This document shows positions 2,146 through 58,605 of a stretch of DNA of 62,775 nt, piece by piece. Origin of the DNA: an uncultured Dehalococcoidia bacterium (lineage in GTDB: Bacteria > Chloroflexota > Dehalococcoidia > DSTF01 > JACRBR01); NCBI GenBank assembly GCA_964458665.1, contig CAYWOO010000110.1:1-62775 (forward strand). Reading direction: 5' to 3'. The notes beneath the pieces were generated by a model, which had not been told where the DNA came from, did no database searches, and saw nothing but the letters and a program-made list of their open reading frames with translations. Each line of letters opens with the position of its first letter. The first letter of the stretch is position 1. Both the position numbers and the translations under genes were made by a program.

Positions 2146-2425
2146 CTCGGGGGACGATCCACTAAGAGCACGAAGGGCACGAAGGGGTTGGGGCCTCACC
2201 GCGGCCGTCGGCCGCGCCCTCTCCACACTGTGGAGAGGGCTCTCGGATCGGGGTGCGTGCTAGTTTCACGGGTGATGCGCTCGACGAGCGCGGGCGCGAC
2301 GGGTTGCGCCCTACGGCGCTACTGGCGATTTTCTCCGATGGTTGATCGTGTCGGCGCGGGCGGAGCTGTTGGGGGTGCCTGAAGTATGATGGCGGCTGAG
2401 GGAGTGGTTGTCTTCGGAGGGAGCC

Positions 2426-3549: not shown

Positions 3550-3875
3550 TCGTGCGGTACTCCTCGGGGTATTGTAGCTGGGGTGGTGTGGGGCCTCACC
3601 CGACCCTCTGCGCGTTACCACGGCGAGTAGGCCGGCGGAGAGGGAGAAACGGGGGCGAACAGAGGCGTGCTGTTCGACTCGGCCCGCGCTGGATCGAGCA
3701 CCTCACCCCCGGCCGTCGGCCACCCCCTCTCCACGCCCTGGATGAGGAGGATCGGATGGGAACCCGTCGGGTATCTGGGAGGGGCTGGGGGGTGGCGGAA
3801 CTGCCCTCACCACGGCGGGCGGGGCGCCCGTGCTCCATTTTTGATGCTGGCCTGCGTCCGGGAATGTGCAATTAG

Positions 3876-7540: not shown

Positions 7541-8094
7541 GCGAAATGTCGGACGATGCGCCAGCTTCGTTGGATCCACGGCATGCGTTCATTGTGGTGT
7601 CGGGCATGCAGGGCACCGGTAAGACGACGGTGGCGGCGCGGTTCGTGCGCGGCGTGCACATTCCAGCGGACGATTTGCAACGGATGATCGTGTCGGGCGC
7701 GACGTGGAAGTCGCAGCGCGGACTCGAGGATGAGGCCGACGCACAACTGCGACTGCGGCTTCACAACACGTGTCTGCTCGGGGCATCGTTCTTCGATGTG
7801 GGGTTCACTGCTGTGCCGGATGACATCATCATTGGTGATCGGTTGCCGCACCTTCTGGAGGAGCTAGGCACGCGGCCGTTCATGTTCGTGATGCTTACGC
7901 CCGACCTGGATGTCGTGCGACAGCGCGAGGCCGGCCGCGGCACGCGGCTACACGAGCAGTGGGGATGGATGGACGCTGAGATCCGCACGGGGACGCGGCG
8001 CATCGGCCTGTGGATCGATAGTTCCGGCCAGACCCCGGACGAGACGGTCGATGAGATCATGGCGCGGGTGTGGGCCGAGGGGGTCGTGGGCTAG
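7537..8094 (+). CDS. P-loop kinase/phosphotransferase (AAA_33 / CPT-like)
   Basis: Walker A GMQGTGKTT; IDSSGQTPDETVDEI ending typical of small kinases. Confidence 0.75.
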   Translation: MSEMSDDAPASLDPRHAFIVVSGMQGTGKTTVAARFVRGVHIPADDLQRMIVSGATWKSQRGLEDEADAQLRLRLHNTCLLGASFFDVGFTAVPDDIIIGDRLPHLLEELGTRPFMFVMLTPDLDVVRQREAGRGTRLHEQWGWMDAEIRTGTRRIGLWIDSSGQTPDETVDEIMARVWAEGVVG

Positions 8095-8290
8095 CCCGGC
8101 GGTTCGGCACGTTCTCTCGATTTCCGGATTCGAACATTGGTCTCAAATCGGGGGAGGCCATTCTACGGAATGCCCCTACGTGGCGTGCGTCGCTGGCATC
8201 AGGTGATTTGCTTGCGTACGAGGCGGCGCGCGGACTGAAGTCCGCGCTAGGGGCACGGGGCAGGGCGAGACCTGCCCCTACACGCGGCGT

Positions 8291-9820
8291 GTGAACATTC
8301 CCATTCGGTACTCTCTTTGCGTGGACTACGACGAGTCGCTGCGGTGGCTGCTGACGCTGCCTGATTTCGAGCGGACTGGCGACTTTTCTTCGCGGCCGGA
8401 TGTGGCGCCGATGCTGGCGTTGCTCTCCGAGCTGGGGGAGCCGCATCGCGGGCGGCCGACGGTGCATATCGCCGGGTCGAAGGGCAAGGGTAGTACGGGC
8501 GCTATGGTCGAGGCGGTGCTGGGCACGGCCGGTATGCGCACGGGGTATTACGTCAGTCCCCATCTGCATCGCTACAACGAACGGGTACGCATCGCGGGAC
8601 AGGCGATCGACATCGACGCGTTTGCGAGCGCTATGACGCGCGTGCGTGTGGCGATCGATGCTGTCGCGGCGCGGTTCGCGGGGCGGCAGTTTCTGGCGTT
8701 CGATGCGCTGACGGCGGCGGGGTTTGTGGCGTTTCGCGATGCGGGTGTCGATGCGCAGATCGTCGAGGTGGGGCTTGGCGGGCTGCTTGATTCTACGAAT
8801 GTGTTTGGGTGGTCGTCGGTCGTCGGTCGTCGGTCGTCGGAGAAGGGCGAGCGGGCGCCAGGAGATGAGGCAGTCGCGGGCGAACGAGCACCTCACCCCC
8901 CAGCCCCCTCTCCACGTCGTGGAGAGGGGGAGCTGCCCGCGCACGTTCTGGTGCTGACGCCGATCAGTTTGGAGCACACGGCGATTCTTGGGGATTCGAT
9001 TGCGGAGATCGCGGGGCAGAAGGCGGGGATCATCATTGAAGGCGCGGCCGTTGTGGTTGCGCCGCAGCGGGAATCGGCGCTGGATGTGTTTCGGGCGGTG
9101 GCGGCGGAGCGCGGGGCGATGCTGATCGAGGTGGCGCTTACCTGCCAGATGACGCGCACGACGGCGACCGCGGAGGGACAACGGTTCAAGATGAAGACTC
9201 CGCTAGAGACGTACGACGCGCAGTTGCCGCTTGTGGGACGCCATCAGCTGGACAACGCGGCGACGGCGATCGTGGCTTGCGAGGCGCTCGCTTCGGCTTG
9301 CGGGATCGAGCTGACGCCGGCGCACGTGCGTGCCGGGCTGGCGAACGTCGTGTGGCCGGGGCGGCTGGAGGTGCTGAGGCACAAGCCGCTGGTCATCGTG
9401 GACGGCGCGCACAACGGAGACTCGGCGAAGCGGATGGTAGCGGCGTTGCGCGAGTACTTCGGGCTGGTGCACGCGACGCTGCTGTTCGGGACGGTTGCCG
9501 GCAAGGACGTCGCGTCGATGGCGGACGCTGTTGCGCCGATTGCACGCGAGGTGTTCGTCACCGCGTGGCCGAGCGCCCGCGCGGCTGATCCGCGTGATGT
9601 GGCGGCGGCGTTTCGGCCGCACGAGGTGCCCGTATCGACGTTCGGCGATCTCGGTCAGGCGTACGAGGCGGCGTTGGCGCAGGCCGGCGAGCGCGGCGCT
9701 GTCGTGGCGTTCGGGTCGATCGCGTTCGTGGGTGCTGTGCGGGAGTACGTGCTGGGGATCGCATCGGATTCGATGCGGCTCGCGAGCGGCCGCCCGGGTA
9801 CATCGGAGAACGCGGGCTGA
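8291..9820 (+). CDS. folC: Folylpolyglutamate synthase/dihydrofolate synthase with an about 40-aa repeat-derived insertion
   Basis: HIAGSKGKGST, SPHL, EVGLGG..DSTNV, WPGRLE and DGAHN motifs. Confidence 0.95.
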   Translation: MNIPIRYSLCVDYDESLRWLLTLPDFERTGDFSSRPDVAPMLALLSELGEPHRGRPTVHIAGSKGKGSTGAMVEAVLGTAGMRTGYYVSPHLHRYNERVRIAGQAIDIDAFASAMTRVRVAIDAVAARFAGRQFLAFDALTAAGFVAFRDAGVDAQIVEVGLGGLLDSTNVFGWSSVVGRRSSEKGERAPGDEAVAGERAPHPPAPSPRRGEGELPAHVLVLTPISLEHTAILGDSIAEIAGQKAGIIIEGAAVVVAPQRESALDVFRAVAAERGAMLIEVALTCQMTRTTATAEGQRFKMKTPLETYDAQLPLVGRHQLDNAATAIVACEALASACGIELTPAHVRAGLANVVWPGRLEVLRHKPLVIVDGAHNGDSAKRMVAALREYFGLVHATLLFGTVAGKDVASMADAVAPIAREVFVTAWPSARAADPRDVAAAFRPHEVPVSTFGDLGQAYEAALAQAGERGAVVAFGSIAFVGAVREYVLGIASDSMRLASGRPGTSENAG

Positions 9821-12750: not shown

Positions 12751-12918
12751 TCACCGCGAAGTCGCGAAGAGCGCAAAGGTTGTTTGGGAGATTCACCACA
12801 GAGGACACGGAGGACACAGAGACTGAGTTGGGAGCGTGTCGGGATTATTCACCGCGAAGGCGCGAAGAGCGCGGAGGTTGTTGGGGGATTCACCACAGAG
12901 ATCACGGAGGACACAGAG
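12751..12918 (+). repeat. Cluster of four 9-bp-periodic elements (CACCGCGAAG.. / CACCACAGAG..) in A-B-A-B order
   Basis: Direct inspection: elements at about 12751, 12794, 12849 and 12889. Confidence 0.8.
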
Positions 12919-12977
12919 GGCTGTTAGGGCGGTTCGGGAGTGTCGGCGCCGGGCGCATCTGACGACATAGGACACAC

Positions 12978-14105
12978 ATGACACACATGGAACACATGCA
13001 AGAGAAGCACGAAACGCAGCGCCAGGTGGTGGGCGTCGAGCCGCTGGAGCCGGCGAGCGTCCGCACGAGCGCGACGCGTCAGCGCATCAGGCGCCGGGCG
13101 GGCTCGGGCGATGCGGCGCTGGACGCGCGGATCGCCGAGCTTTTGGCTGGCGTTGACATTCCGCAGGCTGACCTGCTGCAGGACACGCTCGAGACCGCGT
13201 TTCGCATCGCGCGGACGGCGAATCGCGGCGAGATGAAGCTCGTACGGCGGTCGTTGCACGAGCTGGGGCGAGCGTTTCGCGTCTTCGCGCCGTATCGCGG
13301 CGTGCGCAAGGTCAGCGTGTTTGGATCGGCACGGACGGCGAACGACCACCCGGAGTACGCGATCGCGCGGGACTTTTCGTACAAGATCGCGGCTCGCGGC
13401 TGGATGGTGATCACGGGCGCGGGGCCGGGGATCATGGCGGCGGGGCACGAAGGCGCGGGCAAGCGCAACAGTTTCGGTGTCGGCATCAAGTTGCCAGGCG
13501 AGCAGGGCGCAAACGGGTTCATCGCGGGCGATCCCAAGCTGATCGACTTCAAGTACTTCTTCACGCGAAAGGTCACGTTCATGAAGGAGTCGGACGCCTT
13601 CGTGCTGTGCCCCGGGGGTCACGGCACGATGGACGAAGGCTTCGAGCTGCTTACCCTGATGCAGACGGGCAAGACGGCAATTCGCCCGGTGGTGCTTCTG
13701 GAGCCGAAGGGCGGCGACTACTGGCGGCACTGGGAGCGATTCGTACAAGCGCAACTGGTTGATCGCGGGTTGGCTTCGCCGGAAGATCTGTCGCTGTTCG
13801 AGCGGGCGGACAGCATCGATGGGGCGGTGGCGGTTATCGAGCATTTCTACGCGAACTACGACTCAGCGCGGTATGTCGGCGAGCGGCTGGTGATCCGACT
13901 GCGGCGTGCTCCTTCAGACGAGCAGCTCGACAGGTTGAACGACGCGTTCGGCGACGTCGTTGCGGCCGGGCGGATTGAGGCGTCCGGCATCACTGCGGCG
14001 GAGGCTCGCGACGGCGACGGCGTCGATCTGGCGCGCATCGCGCTGCGGCCGGTGCACAACTTCGGCCGCATCCGGCAGCTGATCGATGCGCTGAACGCGC
14101 TGTAG
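12978..14105 (+). CDS. LOG family (TIGR00730-like) nucleotide phosphoribohydrolase
   Basis: VSVFGSART, ITGAGPGIM, FKYFFTRKVTF, PGGHGTMDE. Confidence 0.9.
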   Translation: MTHMEHMQEKHETQRQVVGVEPLEPASVRTSATRQRIRRRAGSGDAALDARIAELLAGVDIPQADLLQDTLETAFRIARTANRGEMKLVRRSLHELGRAFRVFAPYRGVRKVSVFGSARTANDHPEYAIARDFSYKIAARGWMVITGAGPGIMAAGHEGAGKRNSFGVGIKLPGEQGANGFIAGDPKLIDFKYFFTRKVTFMKESDAFVLCPGGHGTMDEGFELLTLMQTGKTAIRPVVLLEPKGGDYWRHWERFVQAQLVDRGLASPEDLSLFERADSIDGAVAVIEHFYANYDSARYVGERLVIRLRRAPSDEQLDRLNDAFGDVVAAGRIEASGITAAEARDGDGVDLARIALRPVHNFGRIRQLIDALNAL

Positions 14106-14115
14106 CAGTGCAGTG

Positions 14116-14512
14116 ATGGGACAGCCGGGGACGGCTGGCCTCCAACGTGTTGCGCCGTCGCGACGGATCGTTCGTGTTTCGCCGTTGCGACGGATCGTTT
14201 CGTTTCAAACGCAAGGCCAACAGGCGGGGCGCCTGTCTGATGGTCCGGCGATGAGACAGCCGGGGACGGCTGTCCTCCAACGTGTTTCGCCGTCGCGACG
14301 GATCGTTCGTGTTTCGCCGTTGCGACGGATCGTTTCGTTTCAAACGCAAGGCCAACGGGCGGGGCGCCTGTCTGATGGTCCGGCGATGAGACGGCCGGGG
14401 ACGGCTGTCCTCCAACGTGTTGCGCCGTCGCGACGGATCGTTCGTGTTTCGCCGTTGCGACGGATCGTTTCGTTTCAAACGCAAGGCCAACAGGCGGGGC
14501 GCCTGTCCTACA
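14116..14512 (-). repeat. Tandem array, 3 x 135 bp, each unit carrying two REP-like hairpins (GGAG- and GTAG-headed on the - strand)
   Basis: Units start at 14121, 14256 and 14391; near-identical throughout. Confidence 0.95.
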
Positions 14513-15682: not shown

Positions 15683-16066
15683 GGGACAGCCGGGGACGGC
15701 TGGTCCTTCACGCGTGGTACCCGGAGCACGAGCATTGACCGTTTGGCCGACGCCGCTCGGATGCAAGGCTAACAGGCGGGGGCGCCTGTCCTACATGGCG
15801 GAGTGGGCGACGGACGGGGCGCAAGGCCGACAGCCGGGGACGGCTGTCCTCCAACGAGCGGTGGCGGGATCGGAGTTTCTTGATCTCAGCTCGGGCGCAA
15901 GGCTAACAGGCGGGGGCGCCTGTCCTACATGGCGGAGTGGGCGACGGACGGGGCGCAAGGCCGACAGCCGGGGACGGCTGTCCTCCAACGAGCGGTGTCG
16001 GGATCGGAGTTTCTTGATCTCAGCTCGGGCGCAAGGCCAACAGGCGGGGGCGCCTGTCCTACATGG
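15683..16066 (-). repeat. Tandem REP array, 134-bp period
   Basis: AACAGGCGGGGGCGCCTGTCCTACA at 15771, 15905 and 16039, interleaved with ACAGCCGGGGACGGCTG hairpins. Confidence 0.95.
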
Positions 16067-16262
16067 CCGGCCTGCAACTGGCCGGCGCCGCGGCCCTGGA
16101 TCGCGTCGTGCTGTTCGCCTTGACGCGTCCGCTTGAAGGTAGACCTAACGGGCGCGGTTATGTACCTTGCGAGCGGCTTCAGGTGCCGGTTTGCGCCTCG
16201 TGCTGAACAACGCACCCTGACCGTTTGCGTGAAACGCGATTCTGCCCAAGGGAGGGACGAAG

Positions 16263-18080: not shown

Positions 18081-18287
18081 CGTTGGAGGCGGGAAACGGG
18101 ACGCGGGAAACGAGACAAGGCGGCGGGCATGGTGCCCGCCGTTCCCTTTTGGTTGAACCACAGAGGCACAGAGGCACGGAGGAATTGGTTGGAGGTGGGT
18201 GAGGGCGAGGGTACGGTTGTGGTTCGGGCGGCGCGCGGATCGCCACGGCGTGGGTTGCCGGGCGGCGTGATGAGGTAGGTTGCTGGC

Positions 18288-28399: not shown

Positions 28400-28860
28400 T
28401 GTCCGGCTTTGCCGGACGCACAGGTCTCCTGCGGCGACTCTTCGACCGGGGGCGGCTATGCCACGCGCTTTGCGCCTCGCACGCGACCAGTGGTTCTGAC
28501 GCGGGGTTTTGGCTTGCGTTGGTCCGGCTTTGCCGGACGCACAGCCGGGGCGGTTATGGCACGCGCTTCGCGCCTCGCACGCGACCAGTGGTTCTGACGC
28601 GGGGTTTTGGCGTGCGTTGGTCCGGCTTTGCCGGACGCACAGCCGGGGCGGCTATGGCACGCGCTTCGCGGCTTGCACGCGACCAGTGGTTCTGACGCGG
28701 GGTTTGGCGTGCGTTGGTCCGGCTTTGCCGGACGCACAGCCGGGGCGGCTATGCCACACGCTTCGCGGCTCGCACGCGACCAGTGGTTCTGACTCGGGGT
28801 TTTGGCGTGCGTTGGTCCGGCTTTGCCGGACGCACAGCCGGGGCGGCTATGCCACACGCT
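28400..28860 (-). repeat. Tandem array, 97-98-bp period, about 4.5 units, with paired hairpins (GTCCGGC..GCCGGAC and ACAGCCGGGGCGGCTAT)
   Basis: Units at 28522, 28620, 28717 and 28815, plus a degenerate copy at 28401. Confidence 0.95.
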
Positions 28861-29002
28861 TCACGGCTTCTTCTTTGAGCGACTTTCTTTGACCGGAGCG
28901 CGGGGCGGAGCTGAAGCTCTGCGGGTATTTCTTGTGGTTTCTGGCACGGGTTTGGTCGCGTTCCCGGCGTTTGCTGGATCGGGCTTGGCGCTGTTTTTGT
29001 AT

Positions 29003-30543: not shown

Positions 30544-32040
<1,497 letters not shown>

Positions 32041-32251
32041 GTTGGTTTGGAAGCGAGCACCTCACCCCGGCCTATCGGCCACCCCTCTCCGCCCGGAGGA
32101 GAGGGGATTGGATGGGTGAGTTGGTTTGGAAGCGAGCACCTCACCCCGGCCTTCGGCCACCCCTCTCCACGACGTGGAGAGGGGATTGGATGGTGGGTTG
32201 GTTTGGAAATCCGAGCTTGTTGGGCGCTGATTGATGCGCCCGGAGAAGTAG

Positions 32252-33643
32252 ATGACAGAGACAGTGATTAAGTCTGGATTGCCGTCCGTTGGTGAGGCCG
32301 ACGTTGATGCGCTGATCGCTCGGACGGATGCGGCGCCGTGGTTGGCGGAGCGTCGGCGGACGGCGTGGCGCACGTATGTGGCGATGGATCTGCCGGATCC
32401 GGGCGACGAGGAGTGGCGCCGTACGGACGTGCGGGCGATGCGCTTCGACGGCGGTCGGTTGGCGATGGCGGCGACGCCGTCCGCAAGTGATTCGGCGGCG
32501 CGCGACGGTGCGCTGGCGGGACAGATCGTGCAGCGCGATGCGGATGTGGTGGCGGTGCAGCTCGATCCGGAACTGGCTGCGCGCGGTGTCATTTTGTGCG
32601 ATCTGCACACGGCGGCGCGCGAGCACGAGGAGTTGTTGAAGCGCTATCTGTCCGAGGCGGTGCGGCCGAGCGAATGGAAGTTCGTGGCGCTGAACGCGGC
32701 GCTGTGGTCGGGCGGCTGCTTTCTGTACGTGCCGAAGGGCGTGGAGGTCGCGCTGCCGGTGCAGCTTTCGACGAGCCTGTCGGCCGATGGGCTGGCGGCG
32801 TTCCCGCACACGATCATTGTTGCGGAAGCGAACAGCCGGGTGACGTTCATCGACGAGACGCAGTCGCCGAACGGCGGCCCCCTCTCCCCCCAACCCCCTC
32901 TCCCACACGGGGAGAAGGGGAGTGGTGGTTTCGTCAGCGGCGCTGTCGAGATCTATGCCGGCGACGGCGCGAAGGTCGACTACTACTCGATTAATCGCTG
33001 GGGTACGGGCGTCAACAACTTCAACACCGTGCGCGCGATGTTGGGGCGCGATGCGGAAGTACTTGCTATGGCCGCGGGGATCGGCAGCAAGGTGACGAAG
33101 ATGCGCATCGATGCGGAGATGCCGCAGGCGGGGGCGCGGGTGACGCTGCTCGGCGTGACGTTCGGTGACGGCGTGCAGCACTTCGACTACAACACGCTAC
33201 AGAACCATGTCGGCAAGAGCACGATCAGCGACCTGCAGTTCAAGTCGGCGCTGACGGATAGCGCTTCGCTCGTGTGGTACGGCATCACGCGCATCAACGA
33301 GACCGCTGGCGGCAGCGAGGCGAACCAGACTTCGCGCAACCTGCTGCTGAGCGAGCACGCGAAGGCGTCGCCGATCCCGATTCTGGAGATCAAGGCGCAC
33401 GACGTGTCGAAGTGCAGCCACGGCGCGACGGCGGGGCCGGTCGACGAGAACGAGTTGTTCTATCTGGAGGCGCGCGCCATCCCGCGCGTCGTTGCCGAAC
33501 GCATGCTCGTCGAAGGTTACTTCGCCAGCGTCGTGGACCGCATCCCGAACGCCGCGCTGCGTCCGCGCATCATGACAGCGATGCTCGCCAAGGCGGGCGG
33601 CGGCTCCGGCACGCTCACGTACGACGAGGTGATCGCGGGGTAG
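32252..33643 (+). CDS. sufD: Fe-S assembly protein SufD
   Basis: EEWRRTD, FVALNAALWSGG, ILEIKAHDVSKCSHGATAG. Confidence 0.95.
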   Translation: MTETVIKSGLPSVGEADVDALIARTDAAPWLAERRRTAWRTYVAMDLPDPGDEEWRRTDVRAMRFDGGRLAMAATPSASDSAARDGALAGQIVQRDADVVAVQLDPELAARGVILCDLHTAAREHEELLKRYLSEAVRPSEWKFVALNAALWSGGCFLYVPKGVEVALPVQLSTSLSADGLAAFPHTIIVAEANSRVTFIDETQSPNGGPLSPQPPLPHGEKGSGGFVSGAVEIYAGDGAKVDYYSINRWGTGVNNFNTVRAMLGRDAEVLAMAAGIGSKVTKMRIDAEMPQAGARVTLLGVTFGDGVQHFDYNTLQNHVGKSTISDLQFKSALTDSASLVWYGITRINETAGGSEANQTSRNLLLSEHAKASPIPILEIKAHDVSKCSHGATAGPVDENELFYLEARAIPRVVAERMLVEGYFASVVDRIPNAALRPRIMTAMLAKAGGGSGTLTYDEVIAG

Positions 33644-37943: not shown

Positions 37944-38172
37944 TCTTTTCACCACAGAGGCACAAGAGGCACAGAGGATTCGATTGAAGTCGGGTGAGGA
38001 TGGTCCCTGACGGTTGCGGGCGGGGCGCCCGCGCTCCATTCGCTTTGGGCGTCGCGGCGGATCGGGCACCTCACCCTCGCCACGGCGAGCAGCCCGGCTT
38101 CTTCGGGCACGCCTCTCCACGACGTGGAGAGGGATCAGCACGGCGGTAGTGCTGATTTCCGGGCGTTGATGT

Positions 38173-52424: not shown

Positions 52425-52575
52425 GGCGTGACGAGCGGGGCGGACACACAGGTCCGCCCCTACGGCGACCCACAGCCGGGGGCGGCTGTGCCACATCGCG
52501 GGCGTGACGAGCGGGGCGGACACGCAGGTCCGGCCCGTACGGCGACCCACAGCCGGGGGCGGCTGTGCCACATCG
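52425..52575 (-). repeat. Tandem array, 2 x 76 bp, with GTAG- and GTGG-headed REPs
   Basis: The - strand reads GTAGGGGCGGACCTGTGTGTCCGCCCC and GTGGCACAGCCGCCCCCGGCTGTG; units at 52425 and 52501. Confidence 0.9.
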
Positions 52576-53388: not shown

Positions 53389-53615
53389 AGCCACGAAGGG
53401 CACGAAGTACGTTGGGCGGAGCGTTGCGCTGGTGCCCGGGCGTTCGTGTCATACGAAGTTCCGTCCAACCGGCGGGGCGCCTGTCCTACAGCGACGGCGC
53501 GACGTTAGCCACGAAGGACACGAAGGGGCACGAAGTGGTTCGGGCGGAGCGTTGTGCTGGCGCTCGGCGTTCGTGTGAGGTCCGCGCCCGCCCGACAGGC
53601 GGGGCGCCTGTCGTA
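53389..53615. repeat. Two composite units of 9-bp-periodic element (CCACGAAGG.CACGAAG) plus GTAG-type REP
   Basis: Periodic elements at about 53389 and 53508; GGCGGGGCGCCTGTC at about 53471 and 53598. Confidence 0.8.
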
Positions 53616-57323: not shown

Positions 57324-57790
57324 ACACGCACCTTCGGCCCGTAGATGATGGTGATGCCGCGTGGCTGGACGGATGGCTGGCGCCTGTTGCCGCATCTGTC
57401 GGATATGACGGGATCGCGGGTGAGCGGCCGGGTTCGACGTTGATGGAGCGGCTGCGGGGCGAACGGCGGCTGCGGGCGCAGATTATTGTGCGCGATAGCG
57501 ATGATGTTGGGCTGGTCGCGTACCGCACGAGTGCGCCCAAGCGGGATGCGGCGGTCGTCGAGATCGTGGCGACGCCGCCTGCACTCGCACGTCGCGGGTC
57601 GGGGATGAGTGCGGTGGCGCTGGTCGAGGATGCGGTGCGGGCGGAAGGTGCGCGAGTGGTGTACGCGCCGGCGCCTTCGGCTCACGGTATCGGGACATAC
57701 TTCTGGATCAGGTTGGGGTATCGGCCGCTGCTGCGTGCTGATTGGCCGTGCGAGCGGGCAGGTGTCGCGTGGTTGGTGCGGGAGTTGTGA
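57320..57790 (+). CDS. GNAT-fold-like protein
   Basis: IVATPPALARRGSG and YFWIRLGY resemble acetyl-CoA-binding motifs; GTG start overlaps the dinG stop. Confidence 0.65.
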   Translation: MNTHLRPVDDGDAAWLDGWLAPVAASVGYDGIAGERPGSTLMERLRGERRLRAQIIVRDSDDVGLVAYRTSAPKRDAAVVEIVATPPALARRGSGMSAVALVEDAVRAEGARVVYAPAPSAHGIGTYFWIRLGYRPLLRADWPCERAGVAWLVREL

Positions 57791-57796
57791 GCGCGC

Positions 57797-57932
57797 GAGC
57801 AGGGCATTCTACGGAATGCCCCTACGCGAACGGTGTGCGTGCTATTGCTTGGCTGGTGCGGGAGCTCTAGCGCGTGACGAGCGAGGGCATTCTACGGAAT
57901 GCCCCTACGCGAACGGTGTGCGTGCTATTGCT
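57797..57932 (-). repeat. Tandem duplication (about 83 bp) with REP GTAGGGGCATTCCGTAGAATGCCC
   Basis: Copies at 57801 and 57884; a related copy lies at about 8157. Confidence 0.9.
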
Positions 57933-58242: not shown

Positions 58243-58329
58243 CAGGGCGTGCCGGCGGGCGCACAGCCGTGCGCCCCTACGCGGGCGTTGGTGGCGCACA
58301 CGATCTGTGGGTTCAGAGTGATCGCGTGT

Positions 58330-58605
58330 GCTGCGTCGGTCCGGCGTTGCCGGACGGACAGCCGGGGGCGGCTATCCCACATCGAAGAGTCGCGGTCATT
58401 CGTTGCGCACGCGACCGTTGGGCGCTGGTCGATCGAGCGTTGTGCGTAGGTCCGGCTATGCCGGACGGACAGGCGAGGACGGCTATCCCACATCGAATGT
58501 GCGGAGTCGTTCGGGACGCACGCGACCGGCTCGCGCGTCGCGATGGGGTGTGCTGCGTTGGTTCGGCTGTGCCGGACGGAAAGGCGAGGACGGCTATCCC
58601 ACATA
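58330..58605 (-). repeat. Degenerate tandem array, 3 x about 111 bp, with GTGG-headed REP (..CGGCTATCCCACAT)
   Basis: Units at about 58341, 58452 and 58563; a single GTAG REP lies at 58257-58280. Confidence 0.85.

Follow-up and report, generated by a model that had tools for sequence, protein, structure and literature searches.

We analyzed a 62,775-nt stretch of DNA (hereafter, the window) from an uncultured Dehalococcoidia bacterium of the phylum Chloroflexota (contig CAYWOO010000110.1, assembly GCA_964458665.1), in which the gene folC carries an in-frame insert made largely of repeated DNA. The open reading frame (ORF) at 8291-9820 on the plus strand encodes FolC, the bifunctional folylpolyglutamate/dihydrofolate synthase, and the gene call begins at 8321 (8321-9820, 499 aa). 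The TIGR01499 folC profile matches the protein with 332 bits (cut-off 163) in two stretches with the insert between them, the Pfam domains Mur_ligase_M and Mur_ligase_C and solved FPGS/FolC structures match as well, and protein P0001 is 100% identical to it. In canonical FolC, a turn of 3-4 residues joins the DSTN motif to the strand leading to the LEH histidine. Here, 45 codons (8807-8941, plus strand; GWSSVVGRRSSEKGERAPGDEAVAGERAPHPPAPSPRRGEGELPA) take the place of this ancestral DAT(D) turn, with the DSTNVF motif on one side and the HVLVLTPISLEH / VVVLTPISLEH strand on the other. The alignment with L. casei FPGS sets 3 residues opposite 46 of the window FolC (163-208). A preliminary description of this DNA had proposed an insert of about 40 residues at a point where canonical FolC has only a few, and both statements hold. 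From the translation, the tryptic peptides of the insert would be APHPPAPSPR, GERAPGDEAVAGER, and GEGELPAHVLVLTPISLEHTAILGDSIAEIAGQK. An antisense ORF of 374 aa (8057-9181, minus strand) spans folC and the motif described below, which it reads as LPLSTTWRGGWGVR. We discarded it as a shadow ORF, an example of GC-rich repeats inflating spurious gene calls.

The insert begins with a heptanucleotide simple sequence repeat (SSR), (GGTCGTC)x4.3 at 8811-8840 on the plus strand (Tandem Repeats Finder score 60, 100% matches), the only such run in the window. The unit is read in all three phases and encodes SSVVGRRSS, as previously reported, and its 4.3 copies exceed the three perfect tandem 7-nt copies that are the minimum for a dispersed heptanucleotide SSR of the STRR-like type. 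A unique spacer follows (8841-8890, plus strand; EKGERAPGDEAVAGERA), whose end, GAGCA (8887-8890), is common to the left flank of the intergenic copies of the motif. The third part, on the plus strand, consists of a block CCTCACCCCC (8891-8900), a 3-nt loop CAG (8901-8903), and a hairpin (8904-8930) made of CCCCCTCTCCAC (8904-8915), a GTC loop (8916-8918), and GTGGAGAGGGGG (8919-8930). The 12+3+12 hairpin, translated as PHPPAPSPRRGEG, is perfect, in agreement with the stem reported earlier, and shuffles of the window lead one to expect 0 such matches. It is predicted in both the minimum free energy and the centroid RNA structures, a prediction that covers the Watson-Crick hairpin alone.

The preliminary description took this third part to be just a palindrome, a view that has to be revised since the block at 8891-8900 is a mirror repeat of the left hairpin arm. 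The full 40-nt core reads CCTCACCCCC-CAG-CCCCCTCTCCAC-GTC-GTGGAGAGGGGG on the plus strand, and the likeness to other copies reaches left of the stem, via GAGCACCTCACCCC at 8887-8900. On the minus strand, 8891-8930 reads CCCCCTCTCC(AC)-GAC-(GT)GGAGAGGGGG-CTG-GGGGGTGAGG, in the order C-stem, G-stem, CTG, and mirror G-stem, where GGGGGTGAGG (block 3) would be the third-strand block of a purine-motif triplex. By inspection, 10 of 10 uninterrupted triads are of allowed types (G·G:C, A·A:T, T·A:T). The folC copy has the pyrimidine stem, complementary purine stem, and mirror purine block that define the triplex class, and it lies within the ITxF limits, which allow stems of 6-15 nt containing no more than 1 mismatch and loops of 1-6 nt: its stems measure 10-12 nt and are free of mismatches, and its GTC and CAG loops have 3 nt each. 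Judged from its architecture and shared core, the folC "palindrome" is a putative intrastrand triplex motif with three blocks and belongs to the BoxC/PIT/TM class. The element measures 40-47 nt, has more than 75% GC, and five of the six reading frames of its core lack a stop codon.

The best-described member of this class is the G/C-rich intrastrand triplex motif TM_ECO, which equals the BoxC and PIT elements (Holder et al. 2015, Nucleic Acids Research, PMC4666352; earlier work on intrastrand triplex motifs, Hoyne/Maher 2000, is cited therein). TM_ECO has the consensus CCCTCNCCC-N3-6-GGGNGAGGG-N3-GGGNGAGGG and 3,610 copies in 262 proteobacterial genomes, all 23 copies of E. coli K-12 are intergenic, and triplex formation in vitro is reported. 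The same study found no tie to regulation or mobile elements and marked local rearrangement between strains (PMC4666352). Our motif resembles TM_ECO in having a C-rich stem, a complementary G-rich stem, and a mirror G-rich block on one strand, with the core CCTCTCC / GGAGAGG / GGTGAGG, the same A-to-T difference between the G blocks, and a 3-nt second loop. The likeness extends to the many near-identical dispersed copies, which are mostly intergenic and sometimes in inverted or tandem pairs, to the lack of a phage or transposon tie, and to neighbourhoods that are unusually variable between relatives. It differs in that the stems of TM_ECO have 9 nt (CCCTCNCCC) whereas the present ones have 10-12 nt with C5/G5 runs, in that the host is a Chloroflexota/Dehalococcoidia metagenome-assembled genome and not a proteobacterium, and in that the motif is translated in FolC and SufD and forms the tail of SufB; the triplex of this variant is putative. 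The strict TM_ECO consensus has 0 matches on either strand of the window, where the stem is CCCCCTCTCC, and a blastn search of the 43-mer against 5,426 E. coli genomes gave no match, which is weak evidence given a short and low-complexity query. Hence, the folC motif is a variant of the triplex-motif class that falls outside the strict TM_ECO consensus.

The insert is probably present in the enzyme itself. In every orthologue, that is, in 11 independent sequences, the loop has a length that is a multiple of 3 and no stop codon, which argues for its translation as part of FolC, and against an intron, an intein, or a bypass. A search for RNA runs containing folC listed none. An AlphaFold2 model built with a 40-sequence alignment (mean predicted local distance difference test, pLDDT, of 85.8; predicted template modelling score of 0.84) places residues 165-203 between the strands 145-149 and 208-212, with pLDDT below 50 and no secondary structure; most of the insert has values of 33-38. 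The insert is thus modelled as a disordered loop, in which P, G, R, E, and S are abundant. The earlier suggestion that the element is tolerated in a loop agrees with this prediction, as does the loop or surface position expected of in-frame repeats of the Rickettsia type discussed below.

The history of the loop was traced in orthologue DNA, by cutting the anchored loop out of each of eleven sequences. The profile scan of genome contigs with the FolC alignment gave relatives of at most 68% identity among the matches listed, and closer ones were taken singly; we define the clade of the window by 71-85% amino acid identity to its protein in the protein search table. The alignment with relatives that had been proposed as a check on the insert reveals that its repeat is missing from many orthologues: the empty site NVF-DATD-VVVL, as in E. 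coli-like FolC, occurs in L002 and L005, and L004 has a nearly identical one. Within the clade, L081, L082, L084, L086, and L087 have the motif, with 32-37 of 40 bases the same as in the window copy, a level comparable to that of the flanks (80-86%). In L086, the perfect stem is kept through a double change, from CAC..GTG to CGC..GCG. The motif is missing from L083 and L085, which keep the GAGGGGGAG end alone and whose loops look like deletion derivatives. Both also have the (GGTCGTC) run, which is degenerate in L081, L082, L084, and L087. Within the clade, this run is ancestral and has been lost repeatedly.

Outside the clade, the same loop has acquired the motif anew. The orthologue L089 (FolC P0079, 60% amino acid identity) has a pristine copy, identical at 39 of 40 bases between flanks that are only 73-75% identical, and its sister P0115 (L211) is without the motif. 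Sequence comparison thus shows a first independent gain at this loop. L210 (P0013) has at 946-1062 a motif in the opposite orientation, CCCCCCTTCTCCAC-GAC-GTGGAGAGGG-AGTCGA-GGGGTGAG, read as APLLHDVERESRGE, and its sister L088 (10469-10558) has a remnant with the hairpin deleted, GCCCCGGAGGGTGAGG, a pattern that shows a second gain. With these two gains besides that of the window's clade, the same FolC turn has acquired the motif at least three times.

The loop is also the place where FolC varies in length. Among 17 close orthologues, with 71-85% identity to the window protein, 45 of the 45 indel-variable internal columns fall in this loop and 0 outside it, for a total of 14 loop lengths, and in some nested lineages the loop has just 6-7 residues. 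Spacer length and sequence vary among the orthologues and in run X3, and in the related strains of runs X3 and X4 the spacer is shorter or the insert nearly gone. This is the elevated local variability expected of the triplex class, with the motif, the SSR, and plain permissiveness of the site not separated as its cause. Other lineages have other repeats at the same site. More precisely, L001 (10469-10603) has a different heptamer array, (AGAGCAG)n, read in three phases as EQRAESR, and the peptides QQTANSK and ENLEPRT have a 7-residue periodicity that would fit (CAGCAAA)n and (GAACCTC)n, as deduced from the peptides alone. Orthologues with such other heptanucleotide-type loops are P0018-P0022, P0052, and P0098 (alignment A1). 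In the same alignment (columns ~175-210 and 575-660), we noted at least two further variable, low-complexity insertion sites in FolC orthologues, one after GDPHL (P0060, P0079, P0115) and one after the CEELA helix (P0037, P0052, P0079, P0094, P0115).

The window has further copies of the motif. Allowing no more than 1 mismatch, the 11-mer GTGGAGAGGGG has 14 matches in it for 1.5 expected, and the three-block pattern CCTCTCC..GGAGAGG..GGTGAGG has 5 matches for 0 expected from shuffles: 2194-2238, 8891-8927, 31981-32025, 32060-32104, and 32139-32182. All but the folC copy, which is the short-loop form, form a long-loop subfamily: an additional GGCC..GGCC mini-hairpin lies between their blocks, and their second loop has 13-17 nt, outside the ITxF loop range. 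One of them (2194-2240, minus strand) is intergenic, downstream of an ORF for a major facilitator superfamily transporter that ends at 2145, and lies 8 nt past a (CACGAAGGG)x3 SSR (2160-2186). The other three make up a tandem array of 79-bp units (31981-32208, minus strand, x2.9), each with one long-loop motif. The gene sufB (30544-32040) reads through the first unit, from which its 22 final codons and its stop are derived, so that SufB ends in 22 residues beyond the canonical ...SVG C-terminus and the stop is the TGA within GGGTGAG. The gene sufD (32252-33643) has a triplex-type motif in frame at 32878-32920 (plus strand), CCCCCTCTCCCCCC-AA-CCCCCTCTCCC-ACAC-GGGGAGAAGGGG. The whole of it is translated, giving GPLSPQPPLPHGEKG, and 14 of these residues, GPLSPQPPLPHGEK, which lie within the SUFBD_core domain, correspond to a gap in the alignment with the E. 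coli SufB structure. The remaining copies are decayed. At 38070-38132 (plus strand) lies a degenerate intergenic copy made of CCTCACCC, a 34-nt spacer, and the 9-bp hairpin CCTCTCCAC-GAC-GTGGAGAGG, and two others are found within 3594-3734 (plus strand): a degenerate one at 3594-3644, and one at 3701-3734 that is reduced to block 3 plus the left arm. The statement that the folC palindrome recurs between genes elsewhere in the window is therefore correct insofar as the motif is dispersed and mostly intergenic. It needs amending for the copies at 3594-3644, 3701-3734, and 38070-38132, which are degenerate or truncated, and for those at 2194 and 31981-32182, which belong to the long-loop subfamily and the first of whose tandem units, at 31981, encodes the SufB tail.

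Other repeats of the window are of different kinds. Intergenic SSRs of 8-10 nt and of the CACAGAGG / CACGAAGGG type lie at 2160-2186, 12797-12998, 18159-18182, 37953-37977, and 53510-53535; one SSR of this type abuts the triplex motif at 2194. The pairing of an SSR with the motif is also seen in the database protein P0122, as the spurious ORF text TKAQRHEGHKD ... APHPPAPSPTRGEGE. Six more tandem arrays with units of 77-135 bp (14115-14507, 15755-16067, 28449-28869, 52425-52575, 57770-57932, 58320-58604) are centred on GC-rich hairpins such as ACAGCCGGGGACGGCTGT and GGACAGGCGGGGCGCCTGTCC, and belong to other dispersed repeat families of the genome.

Beyond the window, an exact-pattern scan of metagenome contigs for the 40-nt short-loop core found it in more than 120 contigs from soils and sediments, of 47-74% GC, among the matches listed. 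The same scan of viral contigs gave 1 match in 2.9 million. The loop bases vary among copies, and the closing pair covaries as CAC..GTG or CGC..GCG. Many near-identical copies, mainly intergenic and not borne by phages or transposons, are what is expected of a dispersed triplex-class motif. Only about 6 of the 108 copies evaluable by codon-position GC, among the matches listed, are in frame inside genes, and ~94% are not. For long ORFs that span the motif in GC-rich contigs, we required Pfam domains on both sides or support from codon-position GC before calling it coding, which reduced 39 candidates to these 6. Two in-frame copies are confirmed by Pfam, one in a PilQ-type secretin (L118), where the motif lies between the AMIN and N0 domains, and one in an RNase_T/UvrD_C protein (L173). 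An exhaustive HMMER search with the 43-aa insert returned 2 matches, both of them spurious ORFs through intergenic motif-plus-SSR DNA. The heptamer has a distribution of its own. In run X1, a freshwater sediment metagenome, words of the heptamer run have depths of 1147-1482x, with diverse loose ends, and those of the motif 137-327x, against ~10x for the FolC flanks. The depth and the diverse ends of the heptamer words suggest that this array is abundant elsewhere in the community, even if it is single in the window.

The comparison with Rickettsia made in the preliminary description is apt for the situation. Rickettsia palindromic elements (RPEs), reportedly described by Ogata et al. in 2000, are AT-rich, ~100-150 bp long, encode peptides of 30-50 residues, and are not known outside Rickettsia. 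Work on RPEs is cited in PMC1779305 and PMC10969869. In both cases a dispersed palindromic repeat occurs between genes and also in frame in conserved, functional proteins, where the peptide that it contributes lies at the surface while the fold is kept, and its presence varies between orthologues. In the present family, the in-frame cases are FolC, SufD, the SufB tail, the PilQ-type secretin, and the RNase_T/UvrD_C protein, with ORF and catalytic motifs intact. The parallel ends there: our elements have 40-47 nt (14-16 residues), are GC-rich, have a third mirror block, are found across many environmental bacteria, and bear no sequence relationship to RPEs. By analogy, we regard the folC element as comparable to RPEs and not as a member of them.

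The heptamer run can be likened to the heptanucleotide repeats of other bacteria. Heptameric SSRs are over-represented in many genomes (PMC4692102), and TAACTGA repeats are known from Beggiatoaceae (PMC4679880). Like those and the cyanobacterial short tandemly repeated repetitive sequences (STRR), it is a short tandem run of a 7-nt unit, with ~4 units being common, in a class that is dispersed, mainly non-coding, and rarer inside ORFs (PMC4692102, PMC4679880). The window has other intergenic SSRs of 7-10 nt. The folC run differs from the known repeats in its GGTCGTC unit, which is not G-quadruplex-forming, in being in frame in an enzyme, and in that its place in FolC is taken in other lineages by other heptamers (AGAGCAG, for example). 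Our motif also resembles REP/BIME and MITE sequences in being a short hairpin-forming repeat that now and then adds a peptide in frame. Cases of such sequences inside genes include small mobile sequences of enterobacteria and the palindromic repeats with coding potential of M. jannaschii. It does not demonstrably belong to the REP/RAYT system: it lacks a GTAG-type head, and no RAYT or transposase was seen, in a window that was not scanned for a RAYT gene. We rejected a MITE: there is no target-site duplication at the motif of the window, L089, or L210, and the sole inverted repeat is the internal hairpin. Relative to PMC4666352, the in-frame translated copies in conserved enzymes, the recurrent gains at one loop, and the host phylum are new. 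Targeted literature searches found no description of translated in-frame copies of triplex motifs, which is not proof of absence.

We consider it likely that the insert is passenger DNA, translated within a turn of FolC that is permissive, and made of two kinds of short structure-prone repeats that are mostly intergenic in this genome and in many bacteria of soils and sediments. Under this explanation, the motif class would spread to new sites, an "insertion" deduced from the phylogenetic pattern, and genic copies would survive selection because five of six frames are open and because this surface turn is permissive, in a fold that tolerates added residues. The product would be a disordered loop contributing nothing to catalysis. 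Once in place, the repeats may destabilise the local DNA, with DNA structure as the presumed driver, and SSR slippage together with hairpin- or microhomology-mediated deletion could then produce the different loop length of nearly every relative. The preliminary description saw a single composite repeat. Since heptamer and motif each come and go without the other among orthologues, and their proximity elsewhere is unconvincing, they are probably repeats of two classes and independent tenants of one permissive site. Of 127 motifs among the matches listed, 24 have an SSR of 6-10 nt within 50 nt, versus 5.4% of random positions. We dropped a fixed SSR-plus-motif composite, as the nearby SSRs are mostly motif-derived 8-mers and both features are biased towards intergenic DNA.

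Several observations weigh against this explanation. The independent gains are in line with mobility and with the selfish element that had been suggested, but apart from the missing target-site duplications, neither terminal inverted repeats beyond the hairpin nor a transposase are in view at the sites examined (window, L089, L210). The motif peptide is kept in the clade across ~20% nucleotide divergence, and this persistence, together with the double change of L086, could reflect selection on structure, gene conversion from other copies, or fresh insertion. Because the empty site GAC-GTC-GTC-GTG already holds one exact GTCGTCG unit, the heptamer may be a product of local slippage and not an import. 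Finally, the neutrality of the loop is an assumption. In a bolder reading, which we find doubtful, the FolC turn would be a preferred site of landing or origin, where fork stalling and template switching at the native GAC-GTC-GTC-GTG seed heptamers and capture motifs, and non-B-DNA repeats would recurrently generate disordered segments in many essential genes of soil and sediment bacteria. As part of it, the 7-nt array could make folC reversibly switchable by frameshift.

Function of the repeat as DNA or RNA would be an alternative to passenger DNA. A cis-acting hairpin or triplex in folC, by pausing RNA polymerase, the ribosome, or the replication fork or as a nuclease site, could tune the output of FolC, or the 7-nt SSR could cause phase variation through frameshifts. 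A 7-nt repeat unit within coding sequence is typical of contingency loci, the stem is perfect or near-perfect in most relatives, with the compensatory double change of L086, the RNA hairpin is strongly predicted, and the template strand of folC is the G-rich, triplex-competent one, in a motif class for which Holder et al. report stable triplexes in vitro (PMC4666352). However, FolC is intact in close relatives where the motif is missing or decayed (L083, L085, L084, L088), no link between motif and regulation was found in E. coli (PMC4666352), and the whole insert folds no better than its shuffles (z = -1.1). Four SSR units are short for efficient switching, and the contigs of runs X1-X4 contain no frameshifted variants. 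We thus regard such a role as unlikely. Somewhat less likely still is a co-option of the loop as protein, its disordered P/R/G/E-rich segment serving the clade as a docking or regulatory element. Nearly all clade members do have some loop, always in frame, and six orthologues have a recognisable motif peptide, APHPPAPSPRRGEGE, but the 14 lengths found in 17 close relatives come with unrelated sequences, some from other heptamers (EQRAESR, QQTANSK), nested lineages manage with 6-7 residues, and the model predicts no secondary structure, at very low pLDDT over most of the insert.

The remaining alternatives concern the reality of the insert. Its removal from the mature product, as an intein, an intron, or a translational bypass, could be suspected from its position between two conserved catalytic motifs and its stable hairpin. 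The bypass segment of T4 gene 60 contains a stable hairpin too. We find removal very improbable, and rejected all three forms on frame conservation and size: the open, multiple-of-3 loop of 11 independent sequences is a signature of translation, 45 residues are too few for an intein, the Cys/Ser/Thr-His-Asn junction residues are lacking, and no Rfam family matched anywhere in the window at the gathering threshold. Most improbable of all is an assembly artefact, a repeat-induced chimera or mis-join at the heptamer or the palindrome, of which the preliminary description had warned. Both repeats are high-depth nodes in run X1, which is why the Logan unitigs break there. Yet 8500-8984 is tiled by three exact unitigs, which have matching depths (10.6, 8.5, and 8.4) and overlap across both junctions, and the reading frame is intact. 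Moreover, the order of heptamer, spacer, motif, and C-terminal half of FolC recurs in independent assemblies from other samples (L081, L082, L084, L087), and the same insert structure is found in six independent assemblies of relatives. The insert is therefore real.

Passenger DNA at this site would provide an RPE-like case outside Rickettsia, in which dispersed repeat DNA has turned into protein in a free-living, GC-rich, uncultured member of the Chloroflexota. The BoxC/PIT/triplex class has so far been described as intergenic (E. coli K-12, PMC4666352), and here it is found in frame. In practice, a predicted protein with a peptide like PHPPAPSPxxGEGE, PPLHxVERG, or PLSTxWRGG contains a repeat-derived segment or comes from a spurious ORF. 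At the FolC turn, a single site is found empty, newly filled, decaying, and deleted, a natural series that may be used to gauge the rise, spread, and erosion of non-B-DNA repeats and the tolerance of a presumably essential enzyme to insertions.

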